Of a DNA stretch of 64,000 nucleotides, positions 23,854-25,596 are shown in pieces; positions within the stretch are counted from its first letter, which is position 1; the number at the start of each line of letters is the position of its first letter. The DNA comes from an uncultured Bacteroidales bacterium (GTDB taxonomy: Bacteria > Bacteroidota > Bacteroidia > Bacteroidales > Bacteroidaceae): contig CACYSD010000001.1 of NCBI GenBank assembly GCA_902776985.1, positions 106,758-170,757 of the forward strand, given 5' to 3'. A program made the translations under genes and the position numbers. Under the pieces are notes generated by a model, which ran no database searches, had not been told where the DNA came from, and was given only the letters and a program-made list of their open reading frames with translations.

Positions 23854-25512
23854 TTAGAACTCACTAGTGAAGTGGAACTTGATATTTTTGAAGTCCTGCT
23901 GAGCCATCATGAGCACATAGCTGGAGTCGGCAAGGAACACATCGCGTCCTTCACGGTCACGAGCCATATACTGATACTTGCGCTTCTTGAAGTTTTCGTA
24001 CTCTGCTTCATCGTCGCTTTCAATCCAGCACGCTTTGTAAAGGCTGGCAGGTTCCCATTTACAGAGCGCATTATACTCATTTTCAAGACGATACTGGATA
24101 ACTTCAAACTGCAACTGACCTACGGTTCCGATGAGTTTGCGACCGTTAAACTGATTGATGAACAGCTGCGCAACACCCTCGTCCATAAGCTGGTTAATAC
24201 CTTTTTCCAGCTGCTTGGTCTTCATCGGGTCGGCATTTTCGATATATTTGAACATTTCAGGAGAGAACGATGGCAATCCCTTGAAATGCAGTTGTTCACC
24301 TTCAGTCAGAGTGTCACCGATTTTGAAGATTCCGTTATCCGGCAAACCTACGATGTCTCCAGGATATGCTTCCTCAATGGTACTCTTGCGCTGTGCCATG
24401 AATTGAGTTGGAGAAGAGAAACGCACAGTTTTGCCCTGACGTACATGGAGATAAGGAGCGTTGCGGACGAACTTTCCTGAGCAGACCTTGCAAAAGGCAG
24501 TACATGAACGGTGGTTAGGGTCGATGTTCGCGGTTATCTTGAAGATGAATCCTGTGAATTTCGGTTCATCGGGCTGTACCAAGCGCTCTTCCGCTGTAGT
24601 AGGACGTGGACGCGGTGCAATCTCCACGAAACAGTCGAGCAGTTCCTGCACACCGAAGTTATTAAGTGCAGAACCGAAGAATACTGGGGCAACAGAAGCA
24701 TCGAGATAATCCTCAACATTGAATTCCGGATATACACCTTCAATAAGTTCAAGGTCATCACGCAGTTTCTGAGCATCTTCAGCTCCGACATGAGCGTCGA
24801 GTTCGCTGCTATTGACATCCACCTCCACTTTCTCTGTCACTTTCTGCTTGTCAGGAGTAAAGAGGTTGAGGTTATTCTCATAAATATTATATACGCCTTT
24901 GAAACGAGCACCCTGATTAATAGGCCAAGAGAGCGGACGGACACTGATTTGTAGTTCTTCTTCCACCTCATCGAGCAAATCAAACGGGTCGCGACCTTCA
25001 CGGTCCATCTTGTTGATAAACACTATGACTGGAGTCTTACGCATACGGCACACAGTCATGAGTTTACGTGTCTGTGCCTCCACGCCCTTTGCTCCGTCAA
25101 TCACGATGATTGCGCTGTCAACAGCTGTGAGGGTACGGAAAGTGTCTTCTGCAAAGTCCTGGTGACCTGGAGTATCGAGGATATTAACTTTATAAGGCTG
25201 CTGTCCAGGATCTGCCATAGGAGGCAGGTAGTCAAACTCCATCACAGATGTGCTGACAGAGATACCACGCTGCTTCTCTATCTCCATCCAGTCGGATGTA
25301 GCAGTCTTCTTGATTTTATTCGATTTCACAGCTCCTGCCACTTGGATCTGTCCTCCAAAGAGCAGCAGTTTCTCAGTAAGTGTTGTCTTACCCGCATCCG
25401 GGTGACTGATAATCGCAAACGTGCGACGGCGGTCTATTTCAGACCCACCCCTTCCCCTCCCTGCAAGGGAGGGAGTGGATAGATTATCATTAACTGTATT
25501 TTGTTGATTCAT
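23854..25512 (-). CDS. prfC: Peptide chain release factor 3 (GTPase), with an N-terminal extension encoded by a GC-rich hairpin repeat
   Basis: [27 protein letters not shown]1 motif and the rest of the RF3 architecture. 552 aa. The N-terminal 22 aa (..[13 protein letters not shown]) are the translation of repeat element 25445-25479. Confidence 0.9.
25445..25479 (-). repeat. GC-rich G4-motif hairpin element, copy 1 (G-rich on minus strand)
   Basis: Reverse complement is CCACTCCCTCCCTTGCAGGGAGGGGAAGGGGTGGG. Same family as the copies at 25553, 32731, 43196, 43712 and 45063. Confidence 0.55.
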
Positions 25513-25552
25513 TGTTATTTAATTAATTTTTTATATCTGCACAGAGTTCTAA

Positions 25553-25596
25553 CTACTCCCCGCCCTTTACGGGAGGGGTAAGGGGGAGGGTCTTAA
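25553..25596 (+). repeat. GC-rich G4-motif hairpin element, copy 2
   Basis: CTACTCCCCGCCCTTTACGGGAGGGGTAAGGGGGAGGGTCTTAA. Overlaps the last 11 codons of rfbD (translated as LPLTPPVKGGE on the minus strand). Confidence 0.55.

Follow-up and report, generated by a model that had tools for sequence, protein, structure and literature searches.

GC-rich repeats of intrastrand-triplex design at gene junctions in a Bacteroidales genome and their association with DUF559 genes

We analysed a stretch of 64,000 nucleotides (nt) from an uncultured Bacteroidales bacterium of the family Bacteroidaceae (the window; GenBank assembly GCA_902776985.1, contig CACYSD010000001.1, positions 106,758 to 170,757 of the forward strand), in which a short GC-rich repeat occurs six times (copies c1 to c6). 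We found that repeats of this kind are tightly and widely associated with genes of the DUF559 family, one of which lies in the window between two copies. By the order of their blocks, the window repeats are members by design of the intrastrand-triplex class BoxC/PIT/TMECO, with a different sequence and in Bacteroidota. Repeats of the BoxC/PIT/TMECO type have been known since the 1990s but, to our knowledge, have been given no origin, partner protein or function. The element class is already known, and what appears new here is the Bacteroidota family and, above all, the DUF559 association.

Design of the repeat unit

Reading the sequence directly, we found all six copies at the places where a first-pass annotation of the window had put them (Table 1). 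The pattern GGGAGGGGNAAGGGGGAGGG, with up to three mismatches, matched the window three times, and the pattern ACTCCCNNCCN{3,10}GGAGGGN{6,14}GGGTCTT matched it four times, against 0.00 matches expected from shuffles in either case. A profile built from 128 copies of other genomes gave precisely six matches, namely c1 to c6 and none besides. With six copies in 64 kb against 0 expected, and with inverted doublets among them, the repeat is multi-copy and non-random in the way that marks the BoxC/PIT/TMECO class.

The unit measures 45–50 nt and consists of a pyrimidine arm, a loop of 4–6 nt, a complementary purine arm, a linker of 2–3 nt, a mirror purine block and a final TCTT, the common form of the family being ACTCCCCTCCC-loop-GGGAGGGG-yn-GGGGGWGGGTCTT. 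On the minus strand, c1 reads ACTCCCTCCC-ttgca-GGGAGGG-gaa-GGGGTGGG-TCTG and c4 reads ACTCCCCTCC-ttacaa-GGGAGGGG-taa-gGGGGTGGG-TCTTC, and c2 is ACTCCCCGCCC-tttac-GGGAGGGG-taa-gGGGGAGGG-TCTT. Copy c6 is a hairpin only (CCCTCCC-gtca-GGGAGGG), from which the mirror block, the second G block, is absent. Across copies the stems and tails are conserved while the loops drift, and conservation stops 1–2 nt past GGGTCTT and ~6 nt inside ACTCCC.

An intrastrand purine-motif triplex (G*G.C, A*A.T, T*A.T) requires, on one strand, three blocks of just this kind: pyrimidines, complementary purines and a mirror copy of the purines. Among 42 arm variants, the sequence following the hairpin is the mirror of the purine arm in 33 and fits better as a direct copy in five, and an A or T in the mirror block faces an A of the purine arm; examples are GGAGGG-tta-GGGAGG, GGGGGGAG-atg-GAGGGGGG and GGGGGGA-cggg-AGGGGGG. 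Since arm and tail keep their mirror symmetry across variants, they carry the signature of an intrastrand purine-motif triplex element. A strict design finder, which demands a perfect stem and at most one mismatch in the third block, accepted c1 and c4, and c2 and c5 follow the design with one stem mismatch, which the published definition permits (PMC4666352). The E. coli motif of BoxC/PIT/TMECO was given by Holder et al. (2015) as CCCTCNCCC N3-6 GGGNGAGGG N3 GGGNGAGGG (PMC4666352), and the design had been described earlier by Hoyne/Maher (2000) and Bachellier et al., as cited in the same paper. The window copies (CCCCTCCC/GGGAGGGG...GGGGGWGGGTCTT) do not match this TMECO consensus; they share the design but form a different sequence family.

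In the first-pass annotation the G-rich strand had been taken for a canonical G-quadruplex motif. Such a motif (four runs of at least three G, 1–7 nt apart; 4xG3) is indeed present in four of the six window copies, c1, c2, c4 and c5, which are the sole four in the 64 kb; it recurs in 165 of 190 main-family copies, and G4 prediction gave G4Hunter scores of up to ~2.1. However, it is absent from c3 and c6, and it does not hold as a conserved feature of the family, as only 36 of the 127 triplex-design elements that flank DUF559 genes contain it. Family variants such as GTTCCCTCCTTGCAAGGAGGGTTAGGGAGGATCTT lack four G3 tracts, GGAGGG-tta-GGGAGG and GGGGGGA-cggg-AGGGGGG obey the mirror rule without them, and for the first two G-tracts there is competition from the complementary C-arm, which lies on the same strand. 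We thus regard it as highly improbable that a quadruplex or i-motif, with the four G-tracts folded intramolecularly, is the functional core of the element.

Folded singly as DNA, the copies gave modest values with ViennaRNA, which covers Watson-Crick and GU pairs only (minimum free energy −6.7 to −10.6 kcal/mol, z −0.1 to −3.6; z = −3.61 for the c6 hairpin). The two copies that had been noticed close together between rfbD and prfC, c2 and c1, are an inverted doublet with a 66-nt spacer, which folds as one long stem of −28.6 kcal/mol (z = −4.06; 0 of 200 shuffles as good). Copies c4 and c5 are likewise inverted repeats, with 43-nt arms that are 84% complementary and with the G-rich tails pointing outward, and c2 and c1 have the same layout.

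An exact-pattern scan over one genome per GTDB species found at least 120 loci, which bears out the idea of a structured, dispersed, REP/MITE-like repeat family. The notion that such a family is unusual for Bacteroidota was wrong, as most of these loci belong to metagenome-assembled genomes (MAGs) of Prevotellaceae and Bacteroidaceae from gut and rumen; a few, among the matches listed, come from Rhizobiaceae, Chloroflexota, one methanotroph and one acidobacterium. A profile search of the matches listed gave 220 units in 118 loci, either single or in inverted doublets with their tails outward, and 120 of these units pair as 60 '-,+' doublets with non-conserved spacers of 16–181 nt. Tail duplications resembling the extra copies beside c4 also occur in other genomes. 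In the wider-spaced pairs (L005, L054, L064 and L105) the cargo was host genes only or nothing. A strict difference between L-type and R-type inner flanks (GTAACT vs CATTCT) was rejected, both types being found on both sides. In one Chloroflexota MAG (L036, L042, L075, L089 and L090), a hairpin-plus-tail unit lies inside a longer repeat whose flanks are conserved on both sides (…cttttctttagACTCC…GGGTCTTcccttaccaatatgttaggttgctc).

Association with DUF559 genes

The doublet c4–c5 (43196–43755) encloses a gene that the first-pass annotation had missed. Its product is a DUF559 protein (Pfam PF04480, E = 1.4e-32; 112 bits against a cut-off of 20.6), which also matches PDB entry 3HRL, a solved, uncharacterised protein of N. 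gonorrhoeae, at E = 5.5e-17. An AlphaFold model (pLDDT 69) resembled 3HRL (Foldseek probability 1.0, TM 0.60/0.80) and the catalytic domain of I-Bth0305I, a Vsr-like homing endonuclease (probability 0.93, TM 0.52/0.65), and the motif ExDGGYH and other residues are invariant in 28 DUF559 homologues. Alignment and model agree on a predicted Vsr-like PD-(D/E)XK nuclease fold. PADLOC returned only weak matches for DUF559, including a weak homing-endonuclease one, and assigned no defence system. DUF559 is one of the large, old families of domains of unknown function, with a history of more than 20 years. At E ≤ 1e-3 it is matched by 19,017 cluster representatives (50% identity). Many DUF559 proteins in the databases are 300–1200 aa long and have the domain in mid-protein (e.g. 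P0243, P0244, P0276); these long 'proteins' are probably gene-calling fusions, arising from open frames through the flanking repeats.

Starting from the repeat, three loci among the matches listed (L017, L022 and L119) carry DUF559, in each case exactly between a '-' and a '+' unit, and they share one common architecture with the window unit; in the pattern-scan loci of Rhizobium and Chloroflexota, a hidden Markov model search of 8 kb per locus detected no DUF559. Starting from the protein, we fetched 80 metagenomic DUF559 loci. Homologues at least 58% identical to the window protein had a profile match in the expected orientation in 20 of 23 cases, and on both sides in 14. At more distant homologues (43–56% identity) the flanks differ in sequence but not in design, and within each locus the left repeat matches the right one. 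The strict design was found in outward orientation at 67 of 86 downstream and 60 of 87 upstream DUF559 flanks, against 13 of 86 and 18 of 87 in inward orientation and 17 of 1074 (1.6%) background windows at least 700 nt away. On plasmids and chromids, the DUF559 genes of Sphingomonas, Neisseria, Synechocystis, Picosynechococcus, Pseudanabaena, Deinococcus, Azospirillum, Photobacterium, Sinorhizobium and Methylobacterium have the same neighbours, in many cases a whole doublet on either side. The pairing extends over six sampled phyla and is seen in cyanobacteria, Deinococcus, and alpha-, beta- and gamma-proteobacteria. In the searchable literature we found no paper that links DUF559 (ycjD, COG2852) to repeats, and none on the Bacteroidota family, its codon-precise placement and translation, or its cassette exchange.

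The same neighbourhood exists in E. coli. The single DUF559 gene of MG1655 is ycjD, and a perfect TMECO stands 170 bp downstream of it in 'right-hand' orientation; the TMECO pattern matches this E. coli locus (L209). At L209 5250–5440, a degraded unit lies at the stop of ycjD, the last ~45 nt of the gene are duplicated ~60 nt past that stop, and the duplicate is followed by a degraded G-rich tail and then by the intact TMECO/BoxC. This arrangement looks like what is left of a second DUF559 copy. Of 5426 complete E. coli genomes, 3378 carry ycjD. Among the chromosomes of a spread sample, 37 with ycjD had 13–38 places matching ycjD or TMECO (median ~24), and 22 without it had 2–19.

Gene junctions, cassettes and the proposed mechanism

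That the copies sit at gene boundaries, as had been remarked before, is true but understated, as c1, c2 and c5 are even translated in frame. The complement of c2 encodes the 13 C-terminal residues of RfbD (KTLPLTPPVKGGE) together with its stop codon; rfbD, on the minus strand, ends in …ECII-KTLPLTPPVKGGE with a TAG at the inner edge of c2. RfbD homologues of 77–80% identity are 282–287 aa long and end in ...ECIxKLxx, with no c2-type tail. Copy c1 lies in frame within the N-terminus of prfC, the ATG of which is in the doublet spacer; PrfC of relatives begins with MANQEIDRRR or MNTEIERRR and has no insert, and a spacer of 55–67 bp precedes prfC there. The DUF559 unit, c4 and c5 included, is located in a rhamnose-type operon, and the partial tail copies outside c4 begin directly past the TAA stop (43193–43195) of a 476-aa sugar isomerase gene. 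At the other end, the DUF559 stop overlaps an ATG from which the open reading frame (ORF) runs via the leader and c5 into an MFS transporter of 460 aa (MNKQTNSNNQ-STPRPHREGQGGGS-SSLKSTL…), with c5 supplying STPRPHREGQGGGS; native orthologues begin with MAKNSSLKSTL. At its outer end, c6 extends over the MFS gene's TAG stop and takes the place of the three native codons before it, and the tail of c3 ends 4 nt before the ATG (32774) of a Sua5/TsaC-family gene.

The same precision is seen across 158 units. The stop of the tail-facing gene lies between −3 and +4 nt relative to the end of the tail in ~35 of them, and same-strand starts cluster either 0–22 nt past the tail or 59–92 nt upstream, from where the frame stays open across the unit; the non-tail end has no peak of starts or stops. 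In 19 of 28 cases read-through takes the same frame, giving the product M-(N/Q/S/T-rich leader)-(S/T)TPLPxREGQGGGS-host protein, and many doublets bring their own ATG and read via the right-hand unit into the host protein.

Placement of this kind could mean that the host selects the units as operon punctuation, for mRNA processing or stability, translational restart or insulation, and that DUF559 is an unrelated selfish lodger. The exact position at stop and start codons and the fixed frame through the unit fit this idea, as do junctions that stay occupied across species, stems and tails that are conserved while loops drift, and different cargo in the same doublet. Yet the repeat sequence co-varies with the DUF559 subfamily, the pairing extends over six phyla, and close relatives lack units at the same junctions. 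Rfam gave 0 family matches across the whole window, no unit core was flagged as an intrinsic terminator (the only weak match lies in the c4 extension), and PIT/BoxC had neither promoter nor terminator activity in E. coli in work cited in PMC4666352. An inward Bacteroides −7 promoter box (TAnnTTTG) stood at 3 of 65 inner ends against a background of ~1%, an enrichment too weak to keep, so that the inward-promoter idea was dropped. On balance, a host signal seems to us an unlikely explanation.

Comparison with orthologous sites, which the first-pass annotation had proposed, revealed empty junctions in relatives. The empty isomerase–MFS junction (L236) consists of TAA, 34 bp and ATGGCAAACAACAGT…, and in the window the 34-bp spacer and the first ~four MFS codons are replaced by the 560-bp DUF559 unit. 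In these comparisons 48–80 bp were replaced, which is not a simple insertion. [quoted passage not shown] MFS orthologues of 84–91% identity have either the native 443-aa form or one of at least five different element-coded leaders. The units delimit exchangeable cassettes, and the commonest cassette inside a doublet is a DUF559 gene.

Two further sites were observed in other strains. In a sample of the same species (ERZ28613015; L230 280–921), repeats identical to c4 and c5 enclose a lipoprotein-like ORF of 213 aa, without a Pfam match, in place of DUF559 (window 43280–43707); the breakpoints lie precisely at the inner repeat edges, and this ORF, too, has a stop that overlaps an ATG, the frame of which runs on into the MFS transporter. 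At the c3 site of L220, L221, L224, L225, L227 and L228, an insert of 133–166 bp (CAATCGTGCGTTCGCG…GAACCGGAAGGT) splits the hairpin (ACTCCCCACCCTTGGGAGAGG) from the tail (GGCAAGGGGAGGGTCTTC) upstream of Sua5.

By analogy with known systems, we consider it probable that the repeats and DUF559 form a repeat–nuclease pair resembling REP/REPIN-RAYT. The DUF559 nuclease would recognise the unit, folded into hairpin and third strand, where the DNA is transiently single-stranded, and would nick or cut there; repair or recombination between the many near-identical units would then carry copies of units, of doublets and of the cassette to other gene junctions. Such copying would replace the intergenic spacer instead of producing a plain insertion, and the built-in stop and start signals would make the replacement tolerable inside operons. 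The TMECO single strand of E. coli forms a triplex in vitro by circular dichroism and nuclear magnetic resonance, and triplex motifs are tied to local genome variability (PMC4666352).

Several points weigh against a repeat–nuclease pair. Among the matches listed, 117 of the 120 scanned loci have no DUF559 nearby. No single-unit polymorphism was seen between near-identical strains, all sampled same-species strains keeping c1/c2 and c3, and copies are ~82% identical within a genome compared with 78% between genomes, which argues against recent bursts. We found no target-site duplication at four complete units, and we know of no case in which a PD-(D/E)XK nuclease alone acts as a transposase. In the window, c2 and c5 contain the stem mismatch, and c3 and c6 are degenerate, c6 being without the third block. 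Holder et al. saw no TMECO triplex in duplex DNA or in vivo, and they state that nothing with a mobility function, be it a transposase, an integrase or another, had ever turned up near TMECO (PMC4666352). As to E. coli, ycjD is a marker of phylogroups A, B1 and C, in which it occupies the position of the eefRABCD operon (PMC12817139), so that the contrast in copy number is phylogenetically confounded and comprises few independent lineages; moreover, O157:H7 lacks ycjD and yet has ~15 copies.

A rival account of the mobility holds that only the complete repeat-DUF559-repeat unit moves, in the manner of a homing endonuclease, and that doublets and solo units are scars left by deletion of the nuclease gene. 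The prfC doublet, which has no DUF559, retains an ATG and A-rich leader like those at the 3' end of DUF559 units, and in E. coli a duplicated ycjD 3' end and a degraded unit adjoin ycjD. The divergence of copies within genomes, the resemblance of the structure model to I-Bth0305I with the weak PADLOC match, and the occupation of the same junctions (argC, leuC, MFS) across species agree with it as well. On the other hand, the doublet spacers contain no conserved gene remnant, and among the loci listed units outnumber DUF559 genes ~40 to 1, a ratio that would take, on this account, hundreds of separate invasions and precise deletions in every genome. We are accordingly doubtful of decay as the general explanation.

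Extending the repeat–nuclease pair beyond Bacteroidota, we tentatively suggest that DUF559 proteins could be the cognate nucleases of intrastrand-triplex repeats across Bacteria, a second REP/RAYT-like system which would read folded DNA, colonise gene junctions, supply stop and start codons and create cassette sites; we hold this wider proposal to be possible, a little short of an even chance. The consistent pairing across six phyla makes DUF559 a candidate partner enzyme, which gives a directly testable lead on function for two orphans. In Bacteroidales of gut and rumen, essential proteins such as RF3 have their ends rewritten by the repeats, which also create junctions where strains swap cassettes and are likely to break metagenome assemblies and to yield fused or mis-started gene calls. 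If the DUF559 link should prove non-functional, the repeats would still be a new and very abundant Bacteroidota branch of a known repeat class.

Table 1 Positions of the repeat copies and associated features in the window.
Feature	Position	Strand	Description
c1	25440..25482	-	Right-hand unit of inverted doublet; profile 31.2 bits
c2	25549..25596	+	Left-hand doublet unit, as viewed from the minus-strand genes; profile 43.6 bits
c2-c1 doublet spacer	25483..25548	-	66 nt, AT-rich; contains the ATG now used by prfC (25512-25510)
c3	32727..32769	+	Solo, degenerate; profile 18.6 bits
Partial extra tail copies of c4 (GGGTCTT x2)	43196..43231	-	Outside c4 core
c4 core	43232..43279	-	Left inverted repeat of DUF559 unit; profile 47.5 bits
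DUF559 gene, 126 aa	43308..43688	+	Lies between c4 and c5
Element-borne start codon and A-rich leader (ATGAATAAGCAAACAAATTCTAATAAT)	43681..43707	+	Overlaps DUF559 stop
c5	43708..43755	+	Right inverted repeat of DUF559 unit; profile 44.0 bits
c6	45063..45093	-	Truncated solo unit; profile 10.1 bits

The window contains other repeats as well. In the operon that bears DUF559, a 221-aa 23S_rRNA_IVP (four-helix-bundle) gene (ORF 40867–41532) is inserted between the FGGY kinase and the isomerase, flanked by 10-bp tandem arrays (CCTAGGnnnn) at 40623–40806 and 41540–41746; it looks like a second, unrelated small gene with flanking repeats of its own. A third CCTAGGnnnn array (45100–45228) follows c6. 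Two arrays of an 8-bp repeat (CGTTATNA), at 27008–27079 and 48561–48640, are mutually inverted, 21.5 kb apart and both intergenic. Tandem arrays of a 22-bp GTTTCA…TGAAAC repeat occupy 11811–12097 and 38777–39037, and beside them lies a 118-nt segment that has an inverted second copy, 92% identical, at a distance of 26.7 kb. One very large gene on the minus strand (~49800–55100) is internally repetitive, with ~1-kb and shorter periods and a GG-rich protein motif, and another ORF ends in an acidic E/A/T-rich tandem-repeat tail (9880–10061).

Comparison with known systems

The closest relatives in design are BoxC/PIT/TMECO. Both families have the same order of C-rich stem, 3-6-nt loop, G-rich stem, ~3-nt loop and mirroring second G-rich stem, both are multi-copy and intergenic with frequent inverted doublets, and in both a DUF559 gene adjoins at least one copy, ycjD in the case of TMECO, whose units are ~35–40 nt long and vary in copy number by strain. 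MG1655 has 23 TMECO copies with five inverted doublets (5 of 18 sites), 3610 copies were counted in 262 proteobacterial genomes, and many G/C-rich triplex motifs were reported in cyanobacteria; Bacteroidetes, endonucleases and DUF559/ycjD are unmentioned in that paper, which reports no gene tied to the repeats (PMC4666352). The window family differs in phylum and in sequence (CCCCTCCC/GGGAGGGG...GGGTCTT vs CCCTCNCCC/GGGNGAGGG). It is also more tightly tied to stop and start codons and often translated in frame, whereas TMECO was reported 10–310 nt from ORFs with no preferred distance (PMC4666352).

As in I-Bth0305I, an EDxHD/Vsr-like enzyme (PMC3239194), a small putative nuclease gene of the same fold class is present here, and as with free-standing homing endonuclease genes it stands between host genes, is present or absent among relatives, and replaces local sequence on arrival. 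However, I-Bth0305I lies within a group I intron and carries a long DNA-binding region at its N-terminus (PMC3239194), whereas DUF559 has ~120 aa and lies between structured repeats. The units are also read in frame within ORFs, like another class of palindromic repeats. These are the Rickettsia palindromic elements (RPEs) associated with Ogata et al. (2000), which reportedly occur inside ORFs, in frame, and add peptide segments to normal proteins. RPEs differ in being 100–150 bp long and inserting anywhere in genes, without a mirror/triplex block or a nuclease gene.

In its proposed working, the system comes nearest to REP/REPIN-RAYT (Nunvar 2010; Bertels & Rainey 2011, PMC3116915). Both have short palindromic units in tens to hundreds of copies, with inverted doublets as the apparent basic unit, and a small nuclease-type gene in one or few copies flanked by the same repeats in inverted orientation; in both, the repeat sequence co-varies with the enzyme subfamily and target duplication is lacking. 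Here, however, the enzyme is a predicted PD-(D/E)XK Vsr-like DUF559 protein and not a Y1 HUH (IS200/IS605-like) transposase, and the window units have a third, mirror block and overlap coding ends. Since the flanked gene is DUF559/PF04480 and not RAYT, the system is not a member of REP-RAYT and resembles it only in the way it is proposed to work.

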